Of a stretch of DNA of 24,000 bases, positions 2 through 24,000 are shown piece by piece (position 1 is the stretch's first letter; the number at the start of each line of letters is the position of its first letter). Made by a program: the position numbers and the translations under genes. Source of the stretch: an uncultured Thermoplasmatales archaeon (GTDB taxonomy: Archaea > Thermoplasmatota > E2 > DHVEG-1); assembly GCA_964499875.1 (NCBI GenBank), contig CAZCPZ010000001.1, positions 1 through 24,000 of the forward strand, read 5' to 3'. The notes below the pieces were generated by a model. It had not been told where the DNA came from, did not search any database, and was given only the letters and a program-made list of their open reading frames with translations.

Positions 2-76
2 TGCTCCCGTCGGGATTTGAACCCGAGTTGCCGGCTCGAAAGGCCGGAATGATTGACCGGACTACACCACGGGAGC
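2..76 (-). tRNA. tRNA-Glu (anticodon UUC)
   Basis: The reverse complement folds as a cloverleaf. Acceptor GCTCCCG/CGGGAGC, D-arm GTGTAGTCCGGTCAATCAT (typical of archaeal tRNA-Glu), anticodon stem CCGGC/GCCGG with loop CTTTCGA (anticodon TTC), T-arm TCGGG-TTCAAAT-CCCGA, discriminator A. No CCA is encoded within the window. Confidence 0.9.
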
Positions 77-78
77 AG

Positions 79-150
79 CAGCCCTGCCCAGATTCGAACT
101 GGGGTCGCTGGCTCCAAAGGCCAGAATGTTAACCACTACACCACAGGGCT
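79..150 (-). tRNA. tRNA-Gln (anticodon UUG)
   Basis: The reverse complement AGCCCTGTGGTGTAGTGGTTAACATTCTGGCCTTTGGAGCCAGCGACCCCAGTTCGAATCTGGGCAGGGCTG folds as a cloverleaf. Acceptor AGCCCTG/CAGGGCT, anticodon stem CTGGC/GCCAG with loop CTTTGGA (anticodon TTG), T-arm CCCAG-TTCGAAT-CTGGG. It lies 2 nt from tRNA-Glu. Confidence 0.88.
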
Positions 151-297
151 ACAGCACAGGGGTAGTAAATTATGATAACCTATATTTAGAGGTTTTGGAT
201 ATCTAAAATCTTTCTCTTCATCTTAAGATTTAAAAGGTTATGAAGTTAAAGTTATATTCCCGTTGTTTGGTAATAGATCTTGGAAGAGGTGGATTTC

Positions 298-786
298 ATG
301 GATACAATAAAATTATTAGTTAGGGTTTCAGAGGTTTTAAAGAAAAAGGGTTTAAAGGTTGCTACTGCTGAGTCTTGCACTGGTGGTTTAATTGGTCATA
401 CTTTAACTAATATATCTGGTAGTTCAGAGTATTATGATAGAGGAATGATATCTTATAGCAATAGAGCTAAGATGGAACTACTGGGGGTTCCAGAGGAGTT
501 ACTGGAGAAGTATGGTGCTGTTAGTGAAGAAGTAGCAAGAGCTATGGCAGAGGGAGTGAGAGAGAAGTCAAAGGTTGATATTGGTGTTGCTACTACGGGT
601 ATAGCTGGTCCAACAGGTGGAACTAAGGATAAACCAGTTGGATTGGTATATATTGGGGTTTCTACTAGAGAGAAAACTGTCGTTAGGAGATGCTTGTTTC
701 ATGGAAGTAGATTGGGTAATAAGGAGAGTACTTGTAAAGCAGCCCTGGAATTACTACTGGAGGTTCTTGGTGAAGAGGTGAAATAA
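298..786 (+). CDS. cinA: CinA C-terminal domain / nicotinamide-nucleotide amidohydrolase PncC-like protein
   Basis: Hallmark motif KVATAESCTGGLIGHTLTNISGSS plus GIAGPTGG...KPVGLVYIG. The ATG at 298 is preceded by GGAAGAGGTGGA (SD-like). The ORF track extends it to a TTG at 280. The stop is 2 nt before the rtcA start. Confidence 0.9.
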   Translation: MDTIKLLVRVSEVLKKKGLKVATAESCTGGLIGHTLTNISGSSEYYDRGMISYSNRAKMELLGVPEELLEKYGAVSEEVARAMAEGVREKSKVDIGVATTGIAGPTGGTKDKPVGLVYIGVSTREKTVVRRCLFHGSRLGNKESTCKAALELLLEVLGEEVK

Positions 787-788
787 AG

Positions 789-1832
789 TTGATTTCTATA
801 GATGGATCCTATGGTGAGGGTGGTGGACAGATTCTTAGAACTGCTATTGCTTTATCTGCTGTGACAAATACTCCCGTAGAGATTAAGAATATTAGAGCTA
901 ATCGTCCTAATCCAGGTATTAAAGCACAGCACTATACTGCACTACGTATCGTTAAAGAGTTATGTAACGCTGAGACAGAGGGATTGGAGATAGGTTCTCA
1001 TCGAGTCTTTTTTAACCCAGGAGAGTTTAGAGGTGGAAGCTATAAATTTGATATTGGAACAGCTGGTAGCATCGTACTTGTATGTCAAGCATGTATTCTA
1101 GCTGCTGTTAGAACAACTAAGCCGATAACACTATATTTAAAGGGTGGAACAGATGTTAGATGGTCACCATCCTGGGATTATTTTACTCACGTGTTTCTAC
1201 CGCTACTTAGAAGGATGGGTGTAGAGGTTGAGACTAGGTTAATTAGAAGAGGATACTACCCAGAGGGCGGAGGAGAAGCAGAGATAAGGATTCAACCTGT
1301 TGATGAGCTGAAGCCTATTAAGTTAGAGGATTTCAAGGAATGTAGGAAAATAGAGGGTATAATACATGTAACGAATCTACCTGAGCATATTGGGAAGAGG
1401 ATGAAACACTCAGCAGTGAAGGTTTTTGTCAGCAAGGGTATAGATGCTAGGATTAGTGTGGAAACCAGTAGTTCTAGATCTACTGGTACTGGTATAACTG
1501 TTTGGACGACCTGTGAAGGGATTCATCTAGGTAAAACTATGCTTGGAGAGAAAGGTGTTCCAGCAGAGGAAGTTGGTAGAAAAGCAGCTGAGGAATTGGT
1601 ATCAGAGTTATCTGCTAAACCAACCGTTGATGTAAACCTATTTGATCAACTAGTACCGTACATGGTATTAACTAGGGGAGGAGAGAAATCTGTTTGTAGG
1701 GTAAGAGAGATTAGTAAACATGCTGATACCTGTATGTGGCTTGTATCCAAGTTTTATGGGGAGGAGAGTTTATTTAAGGTTGATAAGTTAGAGGGAATCT
1801 ATAGAGTGGAATCTATTGGAAGAGGATTATAG
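789..1832 (+). CDS. rtcA: RNA 3'-terminal phosphate cyclase
   Basis: N-terminus [24 protein letters not shown] matches the RtcA signature (E. coli: [21 protein letters not shown]). Length 347 aa. TTG start with GAGGTGA 8 nt upstream. Confidence 0.92.
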   Translation: [347 protein letters not shown]

Positions 1833-8390: not shown

Positions 8391-9980
8391 TTATGTTAGA
8401 GTCTTCAGTAAGTAAACACCTTTATCTTTGAATCCGAGTTGTCTATAGTAATTCCTTACACCTATCCCACTTAATACAAATAGATGCCTCTTATCGAATT
8501 CATCTCTGCAGATTCTCTCAGCCTCCTCGATGAGTGTCTTCCCGTAACCTCTATGCTGCCATCCATCCATGAGGTGTTCCCCAATAGGTATTTCTCTACC
8601 AACAACTTTGAGTTCCCTTATGATCATACAGGGGTGTCTAGATAACTCTGGTCTATGTGGATTAGTGATATCTCGTAGACGAAGATAACCTATTATAGCA
8701 TCGTTTTTCTCTTCTACTAGCGATAAGAAGATTTCTTCTCCTTCACTGGCAGGGTAATTGATAACATGGAGATTAATACTGTTCTCATCGATCTCCAACT
8801 GTTGACGTAGTAGTTTATGTCCAATCTCCCTGCAGCGGATACATCTACAGTGTGCATCATGTCTCTCCATATCTTCCTCTACTAGTTGACGTAGGTTACT
8901 CTTGGTTACACCAGCTGCTATATATGGTGCAGGTACATCTCTTTGAATTCGTTGAATACGAACCCATTCTGGGATAAAAGATTTAATCTTAGCTATTAGA
9001 TATGAGGCTTCCTCTGAGGTTAAAGGGTTATATCTACCCTTCTTCCATTCCTCATAAAGTGGAGTACCTTCTATAACGAGTGTTGGATATATCTTGATCA
9101 TATCTGGTCGGAAATCCGGGTTTTCAAATATAGTTTTAAAAGCTTCGAGGTCTTTATCTATATCTGAGGCAGGTAAACCTGGCATCATATGGTAGCAGAC
9201 TTTTAAACCACTTTCTTTAGCTAAACGAGTCGCTTGTATAGAGTCAGTTACAGTGTGCCCTCGTTTAATCTTGTATAGTATTTCATCGAATACTGTTTGT
9301 ACTCCTAGTTCAACTCGAGTAGCTCCTAGATGTAGAGATTGATCTATATGTTGTAGCCTGAACCAATCAGGTCTTGTTTCAACTGTTAAACCGACACATC
9401 GATGGGGCGCTTTTTCATTTCTTCTCTGTGCCTCCTCTAGAGTAGAAGAGGGATTTTCGTTTAGGGCATCTAGGCATCTCTTTATAAACCATTCTTGGTA
9501 GAAGAAGGGTCTAGCTGTTAGTGTACCGCCCATGATTATGAGATCTATCTTATCAGTAGCGTGTCCTATGATTTGAAGTTGAGTTAATCTACTCTTTGTT
9601 TGTAGGTATGGATCAAATCTATTGTTGTGTGCTCTTAGAGCAGCTGGTTCATAACCAGTGTAGCTCTGAGGGGTTCCTCTTTGTGGTCCACCTGGACACG
9701 GTGTGCATCTACCATGCGGACACTTTTCTGGGCTTGTCATAACTGCTATGATTGCTACCCCTGATATTGTTCGCATTGGTTTAGTTCTAAGAACCATTAG
9801 GACCCTCCTTTTATCCTCCTCCGGTAGATTCCCTGGTATATACTGTAATATCTCACTGTCAGGAGGTATCCTCTTCAATTTGTATTTCTCGCATAACTGT
9901 ATTTTTAAACGATGCAGTTCTTCTTTAGATCGAATGGAGTTGGATAGGATATTATCTATGATCTCAGAGTATATATTCAT
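8391..9980 (-). CDS. elp3: Elp3-type tRNA uridine(34) modification radical SAM / GNAT acetyltransferase
   Basis: Radical-SAM cluster region SPEKCPHGRCTPCPGGP, a central TIM-like core (VETRPDW, RVELGVQTV), and a C-terminal GNAT (HRGYGKTLIEEAE). Length 529 aa. Confidence 0.93.
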   Translation of the reverse strand: MNIYSEIIDNILSNSIRSKEELHRLKIQLCEKYKLKRIPPDSEILQYIPGNLPEEDKRRVLMVLRTKPMRTISGVAIIAVMTSPEKCPHGRCTPCPGGPQRGTPQSYTGYEPAALRAHNNRFDPYLQTKSRLTQLQIIGHATDKIDLIIMGGTLTARPFFYQEWFIKRCLDALNENPSSTLEEAQRRNEKAPHRCVGLTVETRPDWFRLQHIDQSLHLGATRVELGVQTVFDEILYKIKRGHTVTDSIQATRLAKESGLKVCYHMMPGLPASDIDKDLEAFKTIFENPDFRPDMIKIYPTLVIEGTPLYEEWKKGRYNPLTSEEASYLIAKIKSFIPEWVRIQRIQRDVPAPYIAAGVTKSNLRQLVEEDMERHDAHCRCIRCREIGHKLLRQQLEIDENSINLHVINYPASEGEEIFLSLVEEKNDAIIGYLRLRDITNPHRPELSRHPCMIIRELKVVGREIPIGEHLMDGWQHRGYGKTLIEEAERICRDEFDKRHLFVLSGIGVRNYYRQLGFKDKGVYLLKTLT

Positions 9981-10138: not shown

Positions 10139-10504
10139 TTGATGGTGTTGAGAGTATTCTATGTGGTTGTGCTCCTAGTTTCACTGCTTCTAACCCCTAT
10201 GTTATCGATGTGTCAGGATATCTCCTCTAGTAGTATTTTATCTGGTGGAGTATACTATGTTGCTCCATGGGGAGATGATGATAACCCTGGTACTATAGAT
10301 AAACCTTGGCGTACCATTGGTAAAGCCGCTGATACACTTGAAGCAGGAGATACAGTATATATCAGAGAAGGTGTATACTATGAGAGGGTCATACCAAGGT
10401 ATTCTGGTACTCAAGGTAGTTATATAACATATGCTGCTTTCCCTGGGGAGAATGCAACTATAAGTGGTAAGGAATTAGTTTACCTGATGATCTCACGGGT
10501 TTAA
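10139..10504 (+). CDS. N-terminal fragment (signal peptide + DUF1565-like start of a right-handed beta-helix protein), interrupted by a frameshift
   Basis: Signal-like MVLRVFYVVVLLVSLLLTP, then YYVAPWGDDDNPGTIDKPWRTIGKAADTLEAGDTVYIREGVYYE (pectate-lyase-fold N-cap pattern). The ATG at 10142 is a more likely start than the TTG at 10139. The frame ends 33 nt after the point (10469-10471) where homology switches to the -1 frame. Confidence 0.7.
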   Translation: MMVLRVFYVVVLLVSLLLTPMLSMCQDISSSSILSGGVYYVAPWGDDDNPGTIDKPWRTIGKAADTLEAGDTVYIREGVYYERVIPRYSGTQGSYITYAAFPGENATISGKELVYLMISRV

Positions 10505-10611: not shown

Positions 10612-12633
10612 GTGGCTAAGGATAACTATATCTATAACACTAGTTCCTCTGGTATAGGTGTTTGGGAGAGTAGCGATATAGTTGTTGATGGAAACGAAGT
10701 AGTTTTAGCTTGTAATGATGGAGAGGAAGAGTGTATAACGATTGCTGGTACTAAAGGTTTTGAGGTTAAAAATAATCTTGTTCATCATGGTGGACCAGGT
10801 ACACTTGGTGGAGAGGGTATAGATATCAAGGATGGTTCTAGAAATGGTAGGGTTTATAGAAACAAGGTTTATCATCTGAATAGGATAGGTATCTACGTTG
10901 ATGCTTGGGATAAACATACTTACAGTATTGACATCTACCAAAACATTGTATATGATTGCAATGCATATGGTTTCGCAGTGGCTTCAGAGAAAGGAGGGCT
11001 ACTAGAGGAGGTAAGGATCTATAATAATGTTGCGTATGGTAATAGTATGTGTGGTATAGGTGTAGCTGGTTGGGGTGAACGTGTCTTTAGGCATCCTATG
11101 AGGGGTATAGTGATAATGAATAATGTTTTCTATGATAATGGCAGGGGAGACTGGGGTGGGGGGATCTCAATTGAGAATAGGGATGCAGAAGATATTGTTA
11201 TTAGGAATAATATTTGTAGTCAAAACCTTCTGTTTCAGATACAAGTAGAGGTTAAGATACCAAATCTAGTGGTGGATCATAATTTGATTGATGGGTATAG
11301 GGGTTATGAGACAGAGATTCGTGGTGAGAATTATGTAGAGGGTGATCCATCGTTTATGAACCCCAGTCTAGGTGATTTTCATCTAACGAAGGGATCCCCA
11401 GCTATAGATAATGGCTCCTCTAATGGTGCCCCTGGTTTCGATTTCGATGATAACTATAGGCCCCGTATGAATGATTATGATATAGGTGCTTTTGAGTATC
11501 CTAGAACAAAGTATTATGGAGTAGATACTATTGAGAAGGAAGAGTTTTCATTCCTCAAGAATCATTTAGGTGGAAACCTAGCAGGTGTAGCATTAGAATG
11601 CAGTGTTGAGGATTGGTGGGAAACCTTGAGGGAGGCTGAGAGGAATAATATTAGGCTTATTATATGGCCTCTTGGTCATGGTCACCAGTATACCCCTTGG
11701 AAGTGGAATGGTACAGGTTGGGATATCTCTGAGGGTTTAGAGGTTTTAGAGTATGCAGAGAGTTATGTTACTAGTGGTGGAGAATCCTTATTAGCTGTGT
11801 TAATGTCTCATGAACCATTCTGGAATGATGGGAATCCTTTTACAACAAGTCAGATGAAACAACTATATTCTAAGCTAAAAAGTGTTGCTCCTCATGTTAA
11901 ACTCTATGTTGCTTTTGGTTGCCTATCTTGTTTTGATGTTAACCCTGATACTAGGATTGAGAATGGCATCGCGGATGTAGCTGGTATATGGCTACATTGC
12001 TTTGGTGGAATGGAAGGAAGCATAGAGGATGCATTGAATAGGATTGATAGAGACTATGAGTTGATACAAGAGAAGAATTTGGATATGGATTTATTTTTTG
12101 CTATTCAGACTTTTGGCATAGAGGGTACAAGATACAGGATGCCTTCTGCTAATGAGATGCTAGAATTTGGCAGTAGGGTTTTTGAGAAGAATAAACTCGA
12201 TGGAATCTTCTGGTATCCATGGGGTAACCCAGCTGGTTACACAGAGTGGTTAGAGAAGGATAGATATGATGAGAAGGGTAATGATAGGTGGAGTGTTGTA
12301 CAGTATTTCTCAGATGTTTATATGAATAAGAGTGAAGCATTGTATGTAGAAATAGTTAGACCATCCAACTACCTGTATGTGTTTGATAATGAGATACTAC
12401 CTTTTGGTTATCCTTTGATTATAGGTGGAGTAACTATTAGAGTAGAGGTATCTAAGGATGTTGATGGAGTTGAATTTTATATTGATAATGTCTCGAAGTT
12501 TGTGGATACAGAGGAGCCTTTTGAGTGGTTCTGGGATGAGAACATTATTGGTTGGTCTGAAATAAGGGTAGTGGCTTATGGAGATAATGAACAAGTAGAT
12601 GATACATTATCTACTCTAGTGATTAATACTTGA
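10612..12633 (+). CDS. C-terminal portion of the same beta-helix protein: parallel beta-helix repeats + TIM-barrel-like domain + Ig-like tail
   Basis: Periodic beta-helix repeats (NYIYNTSSSGIGVWESSDIVVDGNEV, NLVHHGG, NKVYHLNRIGIYV, NIVYDCNAYGF, NNVAYGNSMCGIGV, NNVFYDNG, NNICSQN). After about residue 300 come an alpha/beta region and a C-terminal beta-sandwich-like tail. This frame is open back to 10471 and encodes further beta-helix sequence (GISLPDDLTGLIYIADKSYIKVERLNIKDV...), so the GTG at 10612 is probably not a true start. Confidence 0.7.
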   Translation: MAKDNYIYNTSSSGIGVWESSDIVVDGNEVVLACNDGEEECITIAGTKGFEVKNNLVHHGGPGTLGGEGIDIKDGSRNGRVYRNKVYHLNRIGIYVDAWDKHTYSIDIYQNIVYDCNAYGFAVASEKGGLLEEVRIYNNVAYGNSMCGIGVAGWGERVFRHPMRGIVIMNNVFYDNGRGDWGGGISIENRDAEDIVIRNNICSQNLLFQIQVEVKIPNLVVDHNLIDGYRGYETEIRGENYVEGDPSFMNPSLGDFHLTKGSPAIDNGSSNGAPGFDFDDNYRPRMNDYDIGAFEYPRTKYYGVDTIEKEEFSFLKNHLGGNLAGVALECSVEDWWETLREAERNNIRLIIWPLGHGHQYTPWKWNGTGWDISEGLEVLEYAESYVTSGGESLLAVLMSHEPFWNDGNPFTTSQMKQLYSKLKSVAPHVKLYVAFGCLSCFDVNPDTRIENGIADVAGIWLHCFGGMEGSIEDALNRIDRDYELIQEKNLDMDLFFAIQTFGIEGTRYRMPSANEMLEFGSRVFEKNKLDGIFWYPWGNPAGYTEWLEKDRYDEKGNDRWSVVQYFSDVYMNKSEALYVEIVRPSNYLYVFDNEILPFGYPLIIGGVTIRVEVSKDVDGVEFYIDNVSKFVDTEEPFEWFWDENIIGWSEIRVVAYGDNEQVDDTLSTLVINT

Positions 12634-12855: not shown

Positions 12856-15414
12856 GTGGAGAATAAAACATGGTTCTACTTGGTATTAGTAATTAATCTA
12901 TCAATTCTTTCTATTCAATGGTCTAACCTAGAGAATGTTAACCAGTGTTTCCTGAATCCACCTAAGATTAAACATTTGATGGAGGACACAATTACCTATT
13001 TTTCAGTACCAGAGGGTTGTAAACTAGATATAACATTGCATCATATATGGATGTATGGTAACTCCACTTTCAGGGTTTTCAATGAAACCGGTGAGATTTA
13101 CAAGGAGGTTGTTTTTACTAATAATGAGAGTGATGTAACAAAACATGTCTTCTTTAACCAATCTGGTACTTATAAGATGGTTGCTTTTGGAACTGGTTTC
13201 TCATATGATCTAGAGTTTAATGGTTATAGTTCCAATTGGGGTTTCGTTGTAGCTGCTTTTCCACATAAGGGTTTATTTAGACTTAGAGAAGGTGAATCCA
13301 TAAAGGTTTTCTTTAAAGTGAAAGGTAGAAGCTTCTACTTCTATGCTACTGAGGACTTTGATTTAACGAGGAGAGATGGTTATATAGAGGTCTATAATCC
13401 AGAGGGGGATAAGAAAGCTAGTTTCCATCTGATCTCAAATATCCTAGATAACTGTTTCCAGCAGAGTGTTGAGTTGAAGAAGAATAGTGATGATGAAGAG
13501 TTTTGGTATGCCATATTATATGGTGAGGGGAGTAGGACTGCTAAGCTAGGTTTATGGGTTAACCAGAGTAACTATGATTACCCAACCGGTTTAACTACTT
13601 TTTTAACAACCAAACCAGAATACTATTTTAAACCTTGTTTCAAGAGTCGATGTATAGATATAGAGGTTTATGGTGAAATCACTAAAAAAGCACTTGTAGG
13701 AGCAGCTGGTTATCCTTATCGTTATACTGATACCATCTATAATTATACGAGTGAACTTAATCTAAAGACCTTTAATAAATATGTTAGTTGGAGGTGGAGG
13801 GAGAGAGATGAGGATGCTAATCCTAGAAATGATGATAATGATCCTTTTCATATAAACTGGAAGGGGTTTGATTTTAGAAGTTTTGATGAGAGATTCAGTT
13901 TCTTCAACAAACTAGGTATAGCTCCCGTGCTTAACTTGAAATGGAGTAGAGATTGCTTCTTATCTAAACATCCAGCAATCTGGGATGAGAATGATATACA
14001 GGAATACGCAGAGTTTTGTTTAGCCACGGTTATACATTGTGTCGCACCTGATCTAGAGGATCCACCGAGTAATAGAACACCCTATAATATTATGGGTATA
14101 CAGCTTCTAGGTGAACCTAATATACTACTTGAGGAGGAGCTAAATATAGATTCTGCTTTAGATAAATATATTGAGATTCTAAAAATAGTTGGTAATAGGA
14201 TTAAGGATTACCCTGATGGGAGAGTTAATAGTGTAAAGATTTTTGCTCCTGGTATAGGTAGTGATGAACTAGGGGAGTATGGAAAAATATACTGGGTTTC
14301 TCGTATACTTAGAGAAGCAGAGGAATATGTAGATGTGATTTCATGGGATGAATATTATAAGTGGCTGTTAGAGGAAGTAGATAACTATGGTAGAGATACT
14401 AGGGAGATGATTAGTTTAATAAAACACCTGGGTTACGATAAAGAGGTGGGTATGTGTGAATTTAACCTTAGAGGTGGTATACCAACTTCTCAATACTTCT
14501 TTGGCTCTAAGTACTCTGAGTTATATTTGTTTGGCGCCATGGCTAATAGTATCAATAATGGTATGAGGTATATCATCTATTATAGTTTGGTGGATTCATG
14601 GTATGAACCCAGGTTTAAAGGATTAATATCCTCTAATCCCATGCCACCCTACTCAAATATACCTCTTTTAACTAGGAAACCACAGTTTTATTCAATGAAG
14701 ATACTGGGAGAGATATGTAAGGGTTCTATACTCAAACTATCATATGATGCCTCGCAGTTTGATTGTATAGCATCATATGATGACAAGGTTTATAGAATGG
14801 GTTTATCGAATAGATACGAGGGAAAAACCATTATTAAGTTTAATCTAGATAAGAACTTCAAGGTGAAAGTATACAGTGTGGAAAAAGATTCCATAGAATT
14901 CCTCTACGAGAGTTGGAGTAATGAAACCATAGTGATGCCTCCTTGGAGTATATATTATGTTGAAGGAGTTATAGGTGAGTCTAAACCTGATCTCGAGTGT
15001 AGTGGGGAGCTTGTGTGGAGAAATACTAAACCTAATTCTAGTGTACATGGTTATTTCTATGTTGAGAATAAAGGCGATTCTCTCTCCATGCTTAACTGGG
15101 AGATCACTGATTACCCTAGTTGGGGTAACTGGTCTTTCAACCCAATGCGAGGAGAAAACTTGACACCTATAATTAGTCCTATTAGAGTAGATGTAACTAT
15201 TGATGTACCAGATGAGGATAACAAGGTTTTCACAGGGTATATAACAGTTACTAATCTAGATGATTCTATGGATACCTGTAGTATACCAGTTATGATTTCA
15301 ACATCTAGTAATAGATGGTTTTATCAAACCCATCTCGTTAACAACTTGTTTAAACCCCATTGGAGGTTTATCGTTGAGTATAATAGAAACCTTTGGTCTC
15401 ACAAAGAGGTTTAA
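12856..15414 (+). CDS. Large secreted protein: N-terminal beta-rich region, clan GH-A-like (beta/alpha)8 core, C-terminal CARDB/Ig-like domain
   Basis: GTG start followed by a hydrophobic signal-like segment. Colinear with the GH39-like protein at 2621-4123: IQLLGEPN (Glu 14113-14115) vs WEIWNEPD, VDVISWDEY vs IDFFSWHCY, MCEFNL (Glu 14458-14460) vs LTEWNI. C-terminal LECSGELVWRNTKPNSSVHGYFYVENKGDS...WGNWSFNP...FTGYITVTN is a beta-sandwich pattern common in archaeal surface proteins. Dense N-x-S/T sequons. Confidence 0.6.
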   Translation: MENKTWFYLVLVINLSILSIQWSNLENVNQCFLNPPKIKHLMEDTITYFSVPEGCKLDITLHHIWMYGNSTFRVFNETGEIYKEVVFTNNESDVTKHVFFNQSGTYKMVAFGTGFSYDLEFNGYSSNWGFVVAAFPHKGLFRLREGESIKVFFKVKGRSFYFYATEDFDLTRRDGYIEVYNPEGDKKASFHLISNILDNCFQQSVELKKNSDDEEFWYAILYGEGSRTAKLGLWVNQSNYDYPTGLTTFLTTKPEYYFKPCFKSRCIDIEVYGEITKKALVGAAGYPYRYTDTIYNYTSELNLKTFNKYVSWRWRERDEDANPRNDDNDPFHINWKGFDFRSFDERFSFFNKLGIAPVLNLKWSRDCFLSKHPAIWDENDIQEYAEFCLATVIHCVAPDLEDPPSNRTPYNIMGIQLLGEPNILLEEELNIDSALDKYIEILKIVGNRIKDYPDGRVNSVKIFAPGIGSDELGEYGKIYWVSRILREAEEYVDVISWDEYYKWLLEEVDNYGRDTREMISLIKHLGYDKEVGMCEFNLRGGIPTSQYFFGSKYSELYLFGAMANSINNGMRYIIYYSLVDSWYEPRFKGLISSNPMPPYSNIPLLTRKPQFYSMKILGEICKGSILKLSYDASQFDCIASYDDKVYRMGLSNRYEGKTIIKFNLDKNFKVKVYSVEKDSIEFLYESWSNETIVMPPWSIYYVEGVIGESKPDLECSGELVWRNTKPNSSVHGYFYVENKGDSLSMLNWEITDYPSWGNWSFNPMRGENLTPIISPIRVDVTIDVPDEDNKVFTGYITVTNLDDSMDTCSIPVMISTSSNRWFYQTHLVNNLFKPHWRFIVEYNRNLWSHKEV

Positions 15415-16327
15415 CTCCTTTACTGCTGTTAATAGGGTATCTTTTAGTGTTGAGGAGGGCGAAATTTTTGGTTTCCTAGGTCCTAATGGTGCTGGTAAAA
15501 CCACTACGATTAAGATGCTTACAACTCTGCTTCACCCCACTGAGGGATCCGCCACTATCGCTGGTTATGATATTAGGAGGAATAGAAATGAGGTTCGCAA
15601 GGTTATAGGCGTGGTATTCCAAGATCCAGCACTGGATACAGAGCTCACTGGCAGGGAGAATCTTGATTATCATGCTCGTATGTATGGTATGAGTAGGTTG
15701 GAACGAGAGAAACGTATATCTGAGGTTCTCTCACTAGTTGATTTAGAGGATAAGAAGGATACACTTGTTAAGTATTATTCTGGTGGTATGAAACGTAGAC
15801 TTGAGATCGCTAGAGGGTTGATGCATCAACCTAGGGTGTTGTTTCTAGATGAACCTACTCTTGGTTTAGATTCAAAGACTCGTAGGCGTATATGGAGTTA
15901 TATTAGGGAGATGAATAAAAACGAGGGAACAACTATTTTTCTAACTACTCATTATATGGAGGAAGCTGATGTACTCTGTGATAGAGTGGGGATAATTGAT
16001 CATGGTTCTCTAATAGTAGTTGATACACCTAGGAGTTTAAAGAGTAAACTAGGGAGAGATGTTATAACTATTAAAACAAGTGATTCAGATAAACTATGTA
16101 ATATACTTGATGAGGAGGAATGGGTTCAGAAGAGCGAGGTACATGGGGGTATGGTTAATATAGGTGTTGAGAGAGGCGAAGAAAAGATTCCAGTGATTTT
16201 TGAGATTGCTCATAGACATGGGATCCATATAACCTCTATTAGTGTTAGGAATCCTACTCTCGATGACGTGTTTCTTCACTTCACTGGTAGAACCATAGAG
16301 GGGGATAAGAAGATTGGTTTTAGATAG
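15374..16327 (+). CDS. ABC-2-type exporter ATP-binding protein (DrrA-like)
   Basis: Walker A GPNGAGKTT, Q-loop VFQD, signature YSGGMKRRLE, Walker B LFLDEPTLGLD, H-loop TTHYMEEA. TTG is the only possible start upstream of the first conserved strand. It overlaps the preceding gene by 41 nt. Confidence 0.93.
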   Translation: MSIIETFGLTKRFNSFTAVNRVSFSVEEGEIFGFLGPNGAGKTTTIKMLTTLLHPTEGSATIAGYDIRRNRNEVRKVIGVVFQDPALDTELTGRENLDYHARMYGMSRLEREKRISEVLSLVDLEDKKDTLVKYYSGGMKRRLEIARGLMHQPRVLFLDEPTLGLDSKTRRRIWSYIREMNKNEGTTIFLTTHYMEEADVLCDRVGIIDHGSLIVVDTPRSLKSKLGRDVITIKTSDSDKLCNILDEEEWVQKSEVHGGMVNIGVERGEEKIPVIFEIAHRHGIHITSISVRNPTLDDVFLHFTGRTIEGDKKIGFR

Positions 16328-17081
16328 AGAGTTTCAAGCGATTTATGTTATGTGGCTTCGTCAGATGAAACGTTTTATTAGATCTAAGAGTAGAGTAGTT
16401 TCAACTATACTACAACCCATGTTTTTCTTATTCTTCCTTGGAGCAGGTTTTAGGAGAGCTAGTTTGGATGGAATAAATGATTACATCTCTTTTTTAACCC
16501 CTGGTATTGTAGCTATGGCTATCATGCTCTCATCTATGTTCGCTGGAGTCTCAGTTTTATGGGATAGAAAATTTGGTTTCCTCCAAGAGGTTCTTGTTGC
16601 CCCTGTTAGTAGGCTTTCGATTATTATTGGTAGAACCCTTGGTGGAGCAACTATTGCTATACTACAGGGATGTATTATTCTCATTATCTCTATTCTACTT
16701 GGAGCCTCTATATCTGGAAACTTGTTTCTAGCGGTTTTATTCATGGTTTTTATTGCTTTTACTGCTGTTGGCTTGGGTTTAGCAATTGCTTCTAGGATGG
16801 AGGATTTCCAGGGTTTCCAGTTGTTTATGAATCTACTGGTGATTCCTTTACTGTTTTTATCATCAGCTTTCTTCCCTGTGACAAGTGATTCTATGCTTAA
16901 AACTATAGCGTTATTTAACCCATTGTTTTATATGGTTGATGGTTTAAGAGGTAGCCTCATCGATGCTACTGTGGGTGTAGAGGTTGTTAACTCACCCTTC
17001 ATAGATTTAATAGCAGTTGTAATCATCTGTATTTTTATATTAGGCATGGGTAGTATCTTGTTTAGTAGAAGCGAGGTTTAG
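16314..17081 (+). CDS. ABC-2 family transporter permease
   Basis: Six predicted TM helices with an N-terminal amphipathic YVMWLRQMKRFIRSKSR segment typical of ABC-2 permeases. 14-nt overlap with the ATPase gene. Confidence 0.85.
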   Translation: MVLDREFQAIYVMWLRQMKRFIRSKSRVVSTILQPMFFLFFLGAGFRRASLDGINDYISFLTPGIVAMAIMLSSMFAGVSVLWDRKFGFLQEVLVAPVSRLSIIIGRTLGGATIAILQGCIILIISILLGASISGNLFLAVLFMVFIAFTAVGLGLAIASRMEDFQGFQLFMNLLVIPLLFLSSAFFPVTSDSMLKTIALFNPLFYMVDGLRGSLIDATVGVEVVNSPFIDLIAVVIICIFILGMGSILFSRSEV

Positions 17082-17791
17082 CTACTTGGTGGAATCTGGA
17101 ACCAGAATGTATAGGGTGTGAAACCTATCATAACTAAGTTTGAGTAGAAATAACCCGGGAAAACCGCAAATAGGATTAAACCTATATACCCTGTTACATA
17201 TCCAATTAGTAGAGGTAGCATGTATGAGAATAATACGTAGCATACCTTTTCCACTGGATCAAGACACATTACCAAGGCTAGGCCACCAACTATAGCTAGG
17301 AAGCTTGAGAAAGCATTTATGATTCGTTGACCAAACAATCCTAATCCTATTCCAAAGCCGCCTCCAATAACTATTATAGGTGAGAGATGAGCCTGGAAGT
17401 TTTCCATGGACACTATATCATATGATGATATATTCTCCAGTATTCTACCTATGTTTTTACGTGAGAAAATATCTTCAAGAGTTGTGTTTTTATCTACTAT
17501 ATTGTGTTTTTTCAGTATCTCTAGTTCTGATTCAAGTTTATCTACTATATGAAGATCTATTTCTTCTGCGGTTTCTGATAGATTGTTAAGTAAATGCTTG
17601 TATTCCTCGAAGGGCATGTATTTTATCTTCTTCTCTATTTGACCACCCTCTTTATATCTTATTATGTGCAATCGAATGGTTTCCCCATCTAAGCGGTGTT
17701 TACTAGGTTTCGATGTAGAAGGTGTTATTGATGAGTAGGATAACACTAATAGTAGAGCTATAATAACTGTGATTTTGTTTTTGATTTGCAT
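17078..17791 (-). CDS. Hypothetical membrane protein (signal/anchor, charged helical ectodomain, glycine-zipper TM bundle)
   Basis: The ATG at 17791 is preceded by GGAGGGTGG (the ORF track extends it to a GTG at 17806). N-terminal hydrophobic segment, about 110 aa rich in K/E, then IIVIGGGFGIGLGLFG and three further hydrophobic segments. I recognise no family motif. Confidence 0.6.
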   Translation of the reverse strand: MQIKNKITVIIALLLVLSYSSITPSTSKPSKHRLDGETIRLHIIRYKEGGQIEKKIKYMPFEEYKHLLNNLSETAEEIDLHIVDKLESELEILKKHNIVDKNTTLEDIFSRKNIGRILENISSYDIVSMENFQAHLSPIIVIGGGFGIGLGLFGQRIINAFSSFLAIVGGLALVMCLDPVEKVCYVLFSYMLPLLIGYVTGYIGLILFAVFPGYFYSNLVMIGFTPYTFWFQIPPSS

Positions 17792-17878
17792 TTTTCCACC
17801 CTCCACTTGGAATGAGGTAAACCTAAAACAACCATATTATTTAATTTTGTCGATTTTTAATTCGTTTTTTAACGATAA

Positions 17879-20039: not shown

Positions 20040-20618
20040 TTAGATGAAGAAACCTGTTATAGAGATTCTGATCCAGTTGAAGAAACCCACGCCTTCTAGT
20101 TTTATATCACCATTCTTTATTGCTTGTCTAAACCCCTCTGGATTCATGGTTTCCAGTAGATGTCTCACTATTCTCTCTGTTGTATACACGTTTATAGTTG
20201 GATCTTTTATTGGTCCCTGTTGAAATTTTACTAGTTTACCCTTCTCTATGATTACTCCTATGGTTATCACTGCTCCATTATCCTTTGTTATAAACCAGTT
20301 CATCCGCTCATCTGTGAGATATTTACCTACATCATAGTTTTTAACTACTCTACTTAGTTGAAGGAAAAGGTCATCTTCTTTACCTATGGAGAGAAGCAGG
20401 ATTTTATATGCATCTAAGGATGTAACTCTACCGTCTCTATCCATATCCGCTATTGGATCCTCACCTATCTTACCTACAGCCATTTTTAGAGCTATGAGTG
20501 CATCTACACTTGTTATCTCCTCATCATTGTTAATATCTCCCGTTATTGTTTGAGCATTAATTATGGAAGCAGGGATGATAAATAGGAGAGAGGTTAGGGG
20601 GAGGAATCTATGCTTCAT
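20040..20618 (-). CDS. Secreted dockerin-containing protein with C-terminal SCP2-like domain
   Basis: Signal peptide (LLFIIPASIINAQ). Two 22-residue dockerin repeats, DINNDEEITSVDALIALKMAVG and DMDRDGRVTSLDAYKILLLSIG (20379-20540). The C-terminal ~105 aa end in ...NPEGFRQAIKNGDIKLEGVG, which resembles the SCP2 sterol-carrier fold signature (tentative). The ATG overlaps the upstream stop as ATGA. Confidence 0.75.
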   Translation of the reverse strand: MKHRFLPLTSLLFIIPASIINAQTITGDINNDEEITSVDALIALKMAVGKIGEDPIADMDRDGRVTSLDAYKILLLSIGKEDDLFLQLSRVVKNYDVGKYLTDERMNWFITKDNGAVITIGVIIEKGKLVKFQQGPIKDPTINVYTTERIVRHLLETMNPEGFRQAIKNGDIKLEGVGFFNWIRISITGFFI

Positions 20619-21178
20619 TTTCTTGACCCTCTATGCCTCTTATAGATAAATATAATTATTATTGAAAACATGAGTATAAATATTTCAAAACCAGGTGTTC
20701 CTCCTCCACCTTCTTGAGACGTTGAAGCTGCTGCGGCTTGGAAGTTTCCATGTTCTACTGTAACCTCTATATCTGCATGGCTATCTACATCATAGGCTTT
20801 AGCATTCTGTATCGTTACAGATGTTGAACCATTACTTAGAACATTAAAGGTTATCCTAGCTATTTCTCCATCACCATTTATACCATTAGAGTCAGCTATA
20901 CCTATAGTTATTATACCCTCATTATCAGTATTTGATGACAGCATCCCCTTAACTAGGTCTCCTTTCTCCACTTTTAATACTTCTAGTATTGATGGATCAT
21001 ATAGGATTGTTAAATCTATGCTACCAACGTTTACTGCATCTTCTACTATCACTGATACCCGTGTTTCTTTACCAATCTCCCCGCTGGTATCTGGAATTGT
21101 TATTGTTAATGCAGCAGTAGTTTGAATAAATAAGGCAAGTGATATGAGAGTAATTATTATAATCTTTAAAAACCTCAT
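20615..21178 (-). CDS. Cohesin-domain protein with PGF-CTERM archaeal sorting/anchor signal
   Basis: Signal peptide, then a cohesin-like module (ETRVSVIVEDAVNVGSIDLTILYDPSILEV...GDGEIARITFNV...VEHGNF). Ala/Ser/Gly linker, then GTPGFEIFILMFSIIIIFIYKRHRGSRK (PGF + hydrophobic helix + basic tail) at 20618-20710. Confidence 0.8.
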   Translation of the reverse strand: MRFLKIIIITLISLALFIQTTAALTITIPDTSGEIGKETRVSVIVEDAVNVGSIDLTILYDPSILEVLKVEKGDLVKGMLSSNTDNEGIITIGIADSNGINGDGEIARITFNVLSNGSTSVTIQNAKAYDVDSHADIEVTVEHGNFQAAAASTSQEGGGGTPGFEIFILMFSIIIIFIYKRHRGSRK

Positions 21179-21197: not shown

Positions 21198-23978
21198 CTA
21201 CCCTCCTAACCCTATATCAAAGGTATACTTTATACCCTTACTGTAACCCATCAGTAGATAGTTTGTTTTATCAGCTTGTCTCTCTGTGGCTTCCTCTAGT
21301 ATCTTAGCCGCATCTAGAGATGTTACTTTACCATCATTATTCATATCGCCAATTAGATTCTCCTCTATCTTCCCAACATACATCTCTAGAGCTAATAATG
21401 CATCTATACTTGATATCATACCATCTCCATTACAGTCCCCTTTTAGTAGATCCATGGAATTAGGATCCTCAACTGTGAATACACCATTTATTATCTCGAT
21501 GTCAACAGTGTTATCATTTACATCATTTGCAGAGGCTTCTAAGGTAATAGTTGTATAGTCTCCAGGATCGCCTGTAACATTGAAGGTTATAACTGCTACA
21601 GATCCGTTTCCACTGAATCCATCGGTGTCTACAAAAGCTATGCGAACCTCACCATCTAGAATGTTTGACTCGAATAGAGAGTCTGAAGTGAAGGAACCCG
21701 TTACTGCCGAGACAGCGGATAAAACACTAGGGTTGTATCTAACTATTAAATCCATGTTTCTTATATCCCTGGCATTCACCATTTGAATAGGTATCTCAAC
21801 GGTTTCATTCGGTGGCATACTTCTACTTTCGGTGAATAAAATAGTTTTATCACTACTAGTGGTACCACTTGGTATGCCACTACCAATTATACTTCTACCA
21901 TATAAATCTTGGTACATATCAGCTAAACCAGATGGTATACTAGAGTTATCTGTTGAACCCTGTCCGAAGCCGAATAAGTTACCACTCATAATAGTACCAA
22001 TGATACTAAGAGTTTGAGTATAGTAGCTACCAAGGTTTGAGACGAGGTAATCCAGTATAAGGTATCCATCCTCGCTGTCATAGTATACAACCGGTGTAAC
22101 CTGGTAGTATTTATCTTCATCTGTTATACCACCAGCGTAGTATACATGTATACTTGTTTCCTCCGTGAACTCTATTCTATGAGTAGTTACCTTCTCATTG
22201 GTTCTTTCTTTATTAGACCACCCTCCAAACCCAGGGATTTGACTAGCGATCTTATCAAACAAACTTCTAGATTTAATTGTTACACTATGAGTTGATTTTT
22301 CTTCATTGAAACTTGACTCTGACATCCTAATCCATGTCCATTGTTCATCTGGACCAATTGACATTCCATGAGCGAAACCTTGTATCTCATTGTTTCTATC
22401 ATAGTTTAGTAGATCCCTTGTTCTAGATGGATAGGTAGCTAGTACTCCATAGGTATGCACCGGGGAATCATATGGTATAGTACTAGGTGTTGGTCCCTGT
22501 ATTGGTACCATTATCAACAGTGTTTCTCCACTGAGTTCATCTGGTTTTATAATTGGGTACTCATAAACCTTATAGGTTGTAGTGACTGCAACCATGTAGT
22601 CCCTAGAATCTGCACTGAAACCATATCCAACCTCGGTTTCATATGTTGAACCAGTTGTTTTCTCCCATTTATTCGTAACCTTCTTAGATATTGTTATCTC
22701 ACCTTTAAATAAGCCACAGATTCTATTGAATATACCTGGGTCTCCACTTGTAGTGACAATTGAAACTGATTTTACACTCATAGAAGTTGATTCACCATGT
22801 TCATTCTCATACTTTGCATAGAATACACCTCTATCAGGTATAACAGATGGATCTCGAGGTGGAGCATTTATAACCGCTATTATTTGATCAGTAAGTGTAG
22901 CCTCTCCTTTATATGTTGGTTCTCCTACAACAACTGAGTCACCATTTACATCTCCAACAGTTAAACCATCAGATGTTTCATATTCTACATCAAAACTATC
23001 CAACTCATTTCCATTTAAGTTATAGATATGTATTCTATCATCGTGCGCATCACCGGTTACTATCTCGTCTAATCCATCTTGATTTACGTCTCCAGCAGCT
23101 AATTCATCTGAGCCATCAAAATGTGCATCAATTGGCACATAAAGTAGATGCCCATTTTGATCATAGATATAGATTTTATGATAATTGTTTCCCTCTCCAA
23201 ATATGATTTCTTCTAATCCATCTCCATCTACGTCTCCACATGCTACTTCATCATCTCCATTGAAGTGCCCTTCTCTACTTGGGTCATCACCGGCAGCTGG
23301 GAAATCATCTATCTCTCTAAGCTTGTTGGATCGACTTGTATCATATTTGAATATATGAAAGTAACCATCACTGTCATCTCCATGGATTATCTCATCTATT
23401 CCATCTCCATCTATATCTCCAGCGGCAATCCTGTCGCTCCTTGTGAAACCATCATCGATCTCATACCAAGCTATCTCGTTACCATTTATATTAAAAACCC
23501 TTAAACCTTTACCGTTTGGATCACTTGCATCTCCCAGTATAATCTCCTCTTTACCATCCCCATTTATGTCTCCAACTGCTAGGTCATCGTATCTCTCAAA
23601 ATCTACATCAAAATGGGTTATCTCTGAGCTACTTAGATCTCCGGAGCTAGGTGGGACATCATATATATGTATATCATCGTCACTTGCATCACCTATAACA
23701 ACTTCATCTACTCCATCTCCATCTATATCTCCAGCAACGATAGCATCATGATTTTCATAATTTCTACTGTGGTAAGAAGTACTTATGCCACCTATAGAAG
23801 GATGGCTACCATCCATCTCGAAATACCATATCTTATCTCCTCTATCTCCTAGTATGATCTCACCATTCATTATAATCTTACCTTTACCAACTGGTGGTGT
23901 ATCCTCAGCATTTACTATTATACCTACTGCTATTAGAATTAGTAGTATTCCACCAAGATATATTATGGTCTTGGACAT
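21198..23978 (-). CDS. Large surface protein: N-terminal signal/anchor, seven FG-GAP (integrin-alpha-like) repeats, unassigned core, cohesin module, dockerin module
   Basis: FG-GAP calcium-loop motifs AGDIDGDGVDEVVIGD, VGDINGDGKEEIILGD, AGDIDGDGIDEIIHGD, CGDVDGDGLEEIIFGE, AGDVNQDGLDEIVTGD and VGDVNGDSVVVGE, plus a degenerate first repeat. Cohesin-like ETVEIPIQMVNARDIRNMDLIVRYNPSVLSAV...GNGSVAVITFNV...INGVFTV (about 21471-21806). Dockerin GDCNGDGMISSIDALLALEMYVGKIEENLIGDMNNDGKVTSLDAAKILE (21294-21440). Confidence 0.85.
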   Translation of the reverse strand: MSKTIIYLGGILLILIAVGIIVNAEDTPPVGKGKIIMNGEIILGDRGDKIWYFEMDGSHPSIGGISTSYHSRNYENHDAIVAGDIDGDGVDEVVIGDASDDDIHIYDVPPSSGDLSSSEITHFDVDFERYDDLAVGDINGDGKEEIILGDASDPNGKGLRVFNINGNEIAWYEIDDGFTRSDRIAAGDIDGDGIDEIIHGDDSDGYFHIFKYDTSRSNKLREIDDFPAAGDDPSREGHFNGDDEVACGDVDGDGLEEIIFGEGNNYHKIYIYDQNGHLLYVPIDAHFDGSDELAAGDVNQDGLDEIVTGDAHDDRIHIYNLNGNELDSFDVEYETSDGLTVGDVNGDSVVVGEPTYKGEATLTDQIIAVINAPPRDPSVIPDRGVFYAKYENEHGESTSMSVKSVSIVTTSGDPGIFNRICGLFKGEITISKKVTNKWEKTTGSTYETEVGYGFSADSRDYMVAVTTTYKVYEYPIIKPDELSGETLLIMVPIQGPTPSTIPYDSPVHTYGVLATYPSRTRDLLNYDRNNEIQGFAHGMSIGPDEQWTWIRMSESSFNEEKSTHSVTIKSRSLFDKIASQIPGFGGWSNKERTNEKVTTHRIEFTEETSIHVYYAGGITDEDKYYQVTPVVYYDSEDGYLILDYLVSNLGSYYTQTLSIIGTIMSGNLFGFGQGSTDNSSIPSGLADMYQDLYGRSIIGSGIPSGTTSSDKTILFTESRSMPPNETVEIPIQMVNARDIRNMDLIVRYNPSVLSAVSAVTGSFTSDSLFESNILDGEVRIAFVDTDGFSGNGSVAVITFNVTGDPGDYTTITLEASANDVNDNTVDIEIINGVFTVEDPNSMDLLKGDCNGDGMISSIDALLALEMYVGKIEENLIGDMNNDGKVTSLDAAKILEEATERQADKTNYLLMGYSKGIKYTFDIGLGG
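22914..23876 (-). repeat. Intragenic array of about seven FG-GAP repeat units (about 140-185 nt each)
   Basis: Recurring GAT-rich D-x-D-G-D-G coding motif. An exact 24-nt duplicate TCCATCTCCATCTATATCTCCAGC occurs at 23400-23423 and 23712-23735. These are coding repeats, not CRISPR. Confidence 0.8.
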
Positions 23979-24000
23979 TCTTCTATCTCCTCCGGATCTT

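Follow-up and report, generated by a model that had tools for sequence, protein, structure and literature searches.

Which role does a polypeptide play that combines an FG-GAP propeller, a cohesin and a dockerin in one chain? The question is raised by a gene in a stretch of 24,000 nucleotides from an uncultured Thermoplasmatales archaeon (contig CAZCPZ010000001.1, positions 1 to 24,000), called the window here. The gene is the longest open reading frame (ORF) of this 24-kb window and codes for a protein of 926 amino acids, the big protein. Two small genes follow downstream: an anchor gene coding for a cohesin, and the dockerin-X gene, which codes for a dockerin and a further domain, X. The product of the big gene is probably head and adaptor in a non-cellulosomal display complex at the cell surface, whose three components are held together by cohesins and dockerins. 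Coordinates are collected in Table 1.

Domain architecture of the big protein

The ATG start codon is located 8 bases past a GGAGG motif. The N-terminus consists of MSK, a 20-residue hydrophobic core and the residues VNA-ED, a typical Sec signal peptide. Pfam matches were obtained for FG-GAP_3 (expectation value (E) 7e-17; 62.2 bits, cut-off 26.9; five stretches), FG-GAP (E 4e-8; 33.4 bits, cut-off 22.1), Cohesin at residues 720-833 (E 1e-12; 48.9 bits, cut-off 24.1) and Dockerin_1 at residues 846-892 (E 3e-7; 30.8 bits, cut-off 22.9). All lie above the Pfam gathering scores, which bears out the cohesin, dockerin and FG-GAP calls of the original prediction made from the DNA letters. The domain identities of the big protein are thereby established. 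Residues ~353-719 had no Pfam match, and an NCBIfam scan of the protein added nothing. The dockerin is type-I-like, and both of its calcium loops were located by pattern: DCNGDGMISSID and DMNNDGKVTSLD. Behind the dockerin, the tail motif L-x-G-Y-x-x-G-I-K is kept in eight of eight aligned full-architecture homologues, down to 35% overall identity; the tail itself is modelled with low confidence.

The full-length protein was modelled with AlphaFold2 on a family alignment of 39 sequences (mean predicted local distance difference test (pLDDT) 72). Residues 33-351 form an all-β structure of about 26 strands with a pLDDT of ~80-90. In a Foldseek search of the PDB, the full model matched ectodomains of integrin αV best (E 7e-14), followed by αIIb and αX down to E 1e-9. 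The predicted structure hence contains the propeller, and its integrin-like character, originally read from the repeats, is backed by the fold search with integrin αV on top. The original prediction had counted seven FG-GAP repeats with canonical calcium loops. FG-GAP repeats are confirmed; seven canonical loops are not. Five loops of the type D-x-[DN]-x-D-G-x-x-E start at residues 84, 137, 188, 249 and 297, while the sixth copy is incomplete (343 DVNGDS), and the loop search found none in the N-terminal half-unit (residues 40-53). Six D-x-L-A-x-G-D motifs plus this half-unit make seven blades plausible, with the half-unit closing the propeller; the number derives from motifs and strand number, not from blades counted on coordinates.

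The big protein shares with integrin α ectodomains and FG-GAP (VCBS) propeller proteins the FG-GAP repeats and the calcium loops, and integrins αV and αIIb are its best fold matches. Unlike integrin α, it has no β-subunit partner, no thigh and calf legs and no transmembrane helix. Its identity to integrin ectodomains is only 9-10%, and the central domain behind the propeller is unrelated by sequence to the integrin leg domains. The proposed ligand- or cell-binding role at the surface is plausible.

Operon conservation and the proposed pairing of cohesins and dockerins

The anchor gene is located 19 nucleotides downstream of the big gene, and the dockerin-X start overlaps the anchor stop by 4 nucleotides. 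The order of big gene, anchor gene and dockerin-X gene is kept in six loci: L001 (the window's own contig), L002 (a metagenome-assembled genome (MAG) of Archaeoglobales), L003, L087, L088 and L090. Their big proteins are 35-86% identical, with 37% for L002 and 86% for L090. L001 and L090 extend past the end of the window. A further locus, L089, has the big gene and the anchor gene only. Big-protein orthologues of Archaeoglobaceae carry only the NCBI label 'dockerin type I domain-containing protein'. The operon is conserved, and it comprises two classes of cohesins and two classes of dockerins.

The C-terminus of the anchor, with TPGFE, a hydrophobic or transmembrane stretch and a basic tail, is invariant in four anchor orthologues. 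The PGF-CTERM family PF18204 was recorded, weak or faint, for the anchor orthologues in L002 and L088. Sequence identities among dockerin-X proteins are 48-71% when the whole chain, with the X domain, is compared. Invariant residues of this domain (residues 80-192) are E104, M106-N107-W108 and E175-G176-V177-G178, among others. No Pfam, NCBIfam or PDB sequence match was obtained for the X domain, and a dockerin-X profile found only dockerins in the PDB. The C-terminal 'NGDIKLEGVG' may bear some likeness to SCP2-type domains, which no search supports.

Across the six loci, sequence identities are 41% among big-protein cohesins, 49% among anchor cohesins and 28% between the classes. The closest solved structure to the big-protein cohesin is 2xdh from Archaeoglobus fulgidus (Coh2375), with a sequence match of E 4.5e-13 and a Foldseek template modelling (TM) score of 0.80 (root-mean-square deviation (rmsd) 2.4 Å, 28% identity). 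Bacterial type-I cohesins reach TM-scores of 0.7-0.77. The class motif GSxT(Q/S)(N/D)SL of the big-protein cohesins is shared with Coh2375, where it reads GSLTQNSL. In dockerins, positions 10, 11, 17, 18 and 22 of each segment determine the specificity, as established with cellulosomes. The dockerins of the two classes resemble each other more than the cohesins do, with consistent differences in segment 2. Position 14 of segment 2 is alanine in the big proteins (6/6) and tyrosine or phenylalanine in dockerin-X (5/5); position 18 is glutamate, aspartate or arginine in the former and leucine, methionine or serine in the latter. Two anciently separated cohesin classes together with two dockerin classes favour defined, non-redundant pairs.

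Several observations direct the big-protein dockerin to the anchor cohesin. L089 retains just these two partners. Where head homologues have neither cohesin nor dockerin, a direct anchor takes their place: PKD domains with a tail, CARDB or a tail of the type IX secretion system (T9SS). The C-terminus is the anchoring end, and the anchors are interchangeable among head homologues. A. fulgidus provides a precedent, because the dockerin of its ORF2375 binds the cohesin of the adjacent ORF2376. In a 154-pair survey, this dockerin (residues 432-506) and this cohesin (residues 29-162) showed the highest specificity and strength (PMC9705933, citing Haimovitz 2008 and Voronov-Goldman 2011). The layout is the same as in the window: two adjacent genes, one for a protein with a cohesin followed by a C-terminal dockerin and a small neighbour with a cohesin right after the signal peptide. 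ORF2375 has only ~500 residues, which is too short for both a propeller and a central domain. A gene corresponding to dockerin-X is not known to us from A. fulgidus.

The most economical model is a linear chain, because of the distinct classes, the co-conserved partners, L089, the anchored homologues and the A. fulgidus precedent. All three proteins would be exported via Sec signal peptides. The anchor of 187 residues would be fixed to the membrane by its PGF-CTERM-type signal, presumably after processing by archaeosortase A and lipid attachment. Its cohesin would capture the C-terminal dockerin of the big protein in a calcium-dependent manner. The big protein's own cohesin, which is of the other class, would recruit dockerin-X, so that the predicted order is membrane, anchor cohesin, big-protein dockerin, big-protein cohesin and dockerin-X. 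A flexible linker of ~60 residues may hold the N-terminal head off the cell. This head would consist of a seven-bladed, calcium-binding, integrin-α-like propeller and a β-rich domain of ~300 residues. It is most likely the functional part and would bind a ligand, a surface or another cell. The central domain may mediate oligomerisation or insertion via two amphipathic hairpins.

Several points weigh against this chain. The pairing in this locus is one that we infer from layout and analogy. In their first helices the two dockerin classes hardly differ. Through cross-reactivity or dual binding modes, each dockerin might then recognise either cohesin, and self-association would be among the outcomes. 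The window's anchor scores below the curated PGF-CTERM threshold and has only sub-threshold Heimdall/Loki-CTERM matches, and no archaeosortase gene is located within the window. Neighbouring genes and homologues give no hint of a ligand, and where homologues lack cohesin and dockerin, their genes stand alone.

The original prediction had favoured a self-polymerising fibre. The dockerin would bind the cohesin of another copy and build head-to-tail, propeller-studded chains, with the anchor as membrane starter and dockerin-X as terminator. The presence of cohesin and dockerin in one chain fits such a fibre, and the similar first-helix faces of both dockerin classes make a shared specificity conceivable. 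A single A. fulgidus dockerin reportedly binds both cohesins, including the one in its own polypeptide. However, the cohesin classes are distinct over all loci, and class-specific residues are kept on the second dockerin helix. The operon conserves a dedicated dockerin-X partner whose gene is translationally coupled to that of the anchor, and homologous heads work with simple monomeric anchors. The co-conserved partners would be left unexplained. The fibre is less parsimonious than the anchored chain and unlikely; co-conservation of anchor and dockerin-X, distinct classes, directly anchored homologues and the A. fulgidus precedent have all weakened it as the leading reading.

A second display cassette lies in tandem with the operon. 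Directly upstream of the big gene in L090 (L090:1-2003), a PD40/DPP-IV-like β-propeller is combined with a cohesin and a dockerin in a protein of at least 481 residues, cut by the contig end. The cassette continues with a cohesin protein of 184 residues bearing a PGF-CTERM signal, which indicates the same design with a different cargo. In L001, just beyond window position 24000 (L001:27-1363), the cohesin-dockerin part of this cassette is split into the ORFs 27..437 and 527..811, with the break inside the cohesin. A frameshift, a pseudogene or an assembly error could each account for the split.

The central domain and its two hairpins

The original prediction had described an unrecognised region at residues ~356-720. 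Its lack of annotation held: no Pfam or NCBIfam match was obtained even at E 10, and searches against PDB sequences with a single sequence or a 21-sequence profile were without significant match (best profile match a bromodomain, E 0.04). Its extent did not hold, as the domain ends at about residue 657 and the rest is linker. The central domain represents a real and rare family that lacks annotation. An exhaustive phmmer search of 1.84 billion representatives with residues 345-660 yielded only 79 clusters at E ≤ 1e-3.

Propeller and central domain travel as one unit, with 30-41% identity over ~70% of the query in homology searches. Homologues of this head include proteins of ~700 residues in Persephonella, ~830 residues in MAGs of Deltaproteobacteria and ~1000 residues with PKD domains in Thermococcus. 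The Thermococcus homologue P0028 ends with PKD repeats and a hydrophobic or transmembrane, basic tail. In other organisms the head is joined to PKD with a transmembrane anchor, to CARDB or to a T9SS tail, or stands without any such addition. In the full-length phmmer matches, the central domain starts ~330-850 residues into the protein; earlier starts belong to a few short, apparently truncated proteins. Among 42 distant members, FG-GAP was recognisable in 19, CARDB in nine, a cohesin in three and a T9SS tail in two. The gene neighbourhoods of the Thermococcus, Persephonella and deltaproteobacterial homologues have no common neighbours. A profile search of genome contigs with the big-protein alignment was discarded: it returned 80 unrelated propeller proteins, drawn by generic FG-GAP motifs, and A. 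fulgidus was not among the matches.

In an alignment of 106 trimmed domains, the most conserved positions are P373, P374, D460, P492, Y503, H508, Y516, Y625 and Y632. P373 and P374 belong to an 'INAPP' motif just after the propeller. With mostly proline and tyrosine, the conserved set looks structural rather than catalytic, judged from the alignment.

Modelled alone, the central domain reached a pLDDT of 77, with a core of 90-96 at fragment residues 11-50, 111-210 and 261-310. It also contains two long β-hairpins (protein residues 386-456 and 546-614), and the pLDDT drops below 50 in the distal half of each. The model of the whole protein shows partial helix in these distal segments (414-442 and 570-580). 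The period-2 hydrophobic moment was calculated for nine-residue segments over the 106 sequences. Seven of the eight highest segments are located in the distal hairpins (410-432 and 566-589), the eighth at 607-615. Hydrophobic columns of the distal hairpins are charged in 2.5-3% of the sequences; polar columns are ~58% serine, threonine, glycine, alanine or asparagine. The hairpins thus are amphipathic and Ser/Thr-rich as are the insertion hairpins of pore formers, a feature which is necessary and insufficient for that function. The data allow two readings. The hairpins may be ordinary strands of an elongated sandwich packed on the propeller. Alternatively, they would be mobile elements driving oligomerisation or insertion, which has a low probability.

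Under the second reading, the domain would form a β-barrel, as part of a pore-forming toxin or of a secretin-like ring. With the target bound by the propeller, the hairpins of several subunits would join into an oligomeric barrel, in the target membrane or in a surface ring. The change of the inserts of 50-60 residues between helices in one model and β-hairpins of 25-28 residues otherwise, at low pLDDT, is in line with this, as is the concentration of hydrophobic alternation in the distal hairpins across the family. Similar features are known from β-barrel pore formers and secretins (aerolysin/ETX-MTX2, MACPF/CDC, GspD/InvG): long Ser/Thr/Gly-rich amphipathic β-hairpins of uncertain resting conformation beside a binding domain. 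Secretin barrels also headed the Foldseek list of the domain model against the PDB: ~40 chains of InvG, GspD, PilQ and pIV had E 1e-6 to 3e-4 and probabilities up to 1.0. Pore-former hints recurred, each at chance level: Toxin_10 (E 0.096) and CEL-III_C (E 0.36) in permissive Pfam searches, Mpf2Ba1 (E 1.6) for the profile against PDB sequences, and epsilon toxin and Sip (E ~0.1) in Foldseek.

The secretin matches do not hold. Their TM-scores are only 0.1-0.2 with an rmsd of 15-20 Å, and sequence and profile searches with the central domain gave nothing significant, with no Pfam Secretin match at E 10. A control search against viral models retrieved an equally 'significant' nonsense match, a herpesvirus 'histidine-rich glycoprotein-like' protein with E 6e-9, probability 1.00 and TM 0.25. 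Because this control matched comparably, the Foldseek E-values reflect the shape of long hairpins, not homology, and are unreliable for this model. The secretin matches were rejected as evidence of homology. Caution applies to 3Di statistics in general when models are dominated by long β-hairpins, since they are inflated.

Further points speak against a barrel. The hydrophobic alternation equally fits ordinary β-sandwich strands, and hairpin 1 of the window's own protein is weakly alternating. Toxins are not usually tethered to the cell that makes them, and archaea have no outer membrane for a secretin. Altogether, a barrel formed by hairpins of several subunits is quite improbable. The same low expectation applies to the wider proposal that the central domain is an unrecognised β-barrel-forming module and the protein a surface-tethered, propeller-targeted pore or ring former, held on a cohesin-dockerin tether in this archaeon. 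It would span archaea (Thermoplasmata-type, Archaeoglobales, Thermococcus) and bacteria (Persephonella, Deltaproteobacteria, T9SS-bearing lineages).

Feature map, neighbouring genes and related systems

Table 1. Features of the operon and further ORFs in the window. Residue numbers refer to the respective protein.
Feature	Position	Strand	Description and basis
Big gene, 926-residue head/adaptor	21198..23978	-	Signal peptide, FG-GAP propeller, central domain, linker, cohesin, dockerin, tail
Signal peptide, residues 1-24	23907..23978	-	Read from sequence; helix at 4-21 in model
FG-GAP β-propeller, residues ~31-352	22923..23888	-	Pfam, loop search, model, fold match
Central domain, residues ~353-657	22008..22922	-	Family alignment; no Pfam, NCBIfam or PDB relative
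Distal hairpin 1, residues 400-432	22683..22781	-	Low confidence; helix in full-length model, long β-hairpin in domain model
Distal hairpin 2, residues 564-590	22209..22289	-	Low confidence; helix and β-hairpin likewise differ between models
Gly/Ser-rich linker, residues 658-719	21822..22007	-	pLDDT <50
Cohesin, residues 720-836	21471..21821	-	Pfam, 2xdh match, class analysis
Dockerin, residues 846-895	21294..21443	-	Pfam; two calcium-loop/helix segments; alanine at position 14 and glutamate at position 18 of segment 2
C-terminal tail, residues 896-926	21201..21293	-	Motif L-x-G-Y-x-x-G-I-K, alignment
Anchor gene, 187 residues	20615..21178	-	Signal peptide, cohesin (25-145), PGF-CTERM-type end; Pfam Cohesin E 6e-17
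Putative anchor C-terminal sorting signal	20618..20701	-	TPGFE, hydrophobic stretch, basic residues; sequence ...GGGGTPGFEIFILMFSIIIIFIYKRHRGSRK
Dockerin-X gene, 192 residues	20040..20618	-	Signal peptide, dockerin (27-78), 115-residue domain; Pfam Dockerin E 1e-6
X domain of dockerin-X, residues 80-192	20043..20381	-	Invariant residues, see text
242-residue ORF	17078..17806	-	No Pfam match
ABC-2 transporter pair	15374..17081		
852-residue ORF	12856..15414	+	No Pfam match at E 0.01
Pel9A-like/right-handed β-helix protein	10139..10504 and 10612..12633	+	Two adjacent ORFs
Elp3 ORF	8391..9980	-	529 residues from first ATG

The window has a G+C content of ~37% and contains archaeal-looking housekeeping genes: Elp3, RtcA, FolD, a DUF131 protein and a PhoU-type regulator. 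Elp3 is 76% identical to its best named homologue, which comes from a MAG, and 67% identical to the protein of Thermoplasmatales archaeon SG8-52-2. Judged by these Elp3 homologues, the host is probably an archaeon of the Thermoplasmata lineage. The NCBI record of Elp3 has 495 residues and covers 94%, as the start is called differently. The ORF of 852 residues lies directly upstream of the ABC-2 transporter pair and overlaps it. At the position of the 242-residue ORF, a gene of 237 residues was called in L001. The promoter and terminator scan used bacterial models and was uninformative for an archaeon. The β-helix protein of the window includes Big_7 and disaggregatase-related regions.

A mini-cellulosome-like scaffold, with glycan-active enzymes held on the cohesin by their dockerins for the breakdown of extracellular polymers, is very unlikely: a Pel9A-like β-helix gene immediately follows the dockerin-X gene in L002 and L003 (L002:9876-10191; L003:9893-11401) and β-helix, GH39-like and esterase genes occur elsewhere in the window, but neither of the two dockerins in the window is on an enzyme, none was seen on β-helix proteins, and the sole co-conserved dockerin protein has a 115-residue, non-enzymatic-looking domain without family match. 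The positions in L002 and L003 suggest a recurrent association of the β-helix gene with the operon.

The proposed anchored three-component chain has its counterpart in the scaffoldins of bacterial cellulosomes (for example the ScaA/ScaB/ScaC logic of C. thermocellum and A. cellulolyticus). Common to both are an anchoring cohesin, an adaptor with cohesin and dockerin, and a dockerin-bearing terminal subunit, as well as a type-I-like dockerin that is predicted to be calcium-dependent here too. Unlike cellulosomes, the archaeal system has no enzymes, no carbohydrate-binding module and no multi-cohesin scaffoldin. The anchor probably has a PGF-CTERM-type archaeal signal instead of S-layer homology domains or a sortase substrate, and the adaptor itself carries the presumed functional head.

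To our knowledge, only the A. fulgidus pair of non-cellulosomal cohesins and dockerins has been studied, mainly as a biotechnological tool. Anaerobic methanotrophic archaea (ANME) and other archaea have abundant extracellular cohesin and dockerin proteins. Surface attachment and cell-cell contact have been proposed as their roles, with partners unassigned (PMC5244752, PMC9012536). These surveys report how often the domains occur and name cargo, for instance substrate-binding proteins and S-layer domains (Timmers et al. 2017, PMC5244752; Chadwick et al. 2022, PMC9012536). Among the papers of the library that was searched, none combines FG-GAP, dockerin, cohesin and archaea. With its architecture, the big protein adds a new cargo to a kind of non-cellulosomal cohesin-dockerin system already known from archaea.

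Non-cellulosomal cohesin-dockerin pairs are widespread in archaea. The locus offers a clean, conserved and minimal system of three genes with separate anchor, adaptor and terminal roles, each directly testable. The system is kept across divergent archaeal loci, including Archaeoglobales. Its central domain is obligatorily fused to an integrin-like propeller, in archaea and in bacteria. If the hairpins mediate oligomerisation or membrane insertion, the proteins would constitute a new family of surface effectors. If they do not, the central domain is still a new adhesin head that would be worth a Pfam entry.

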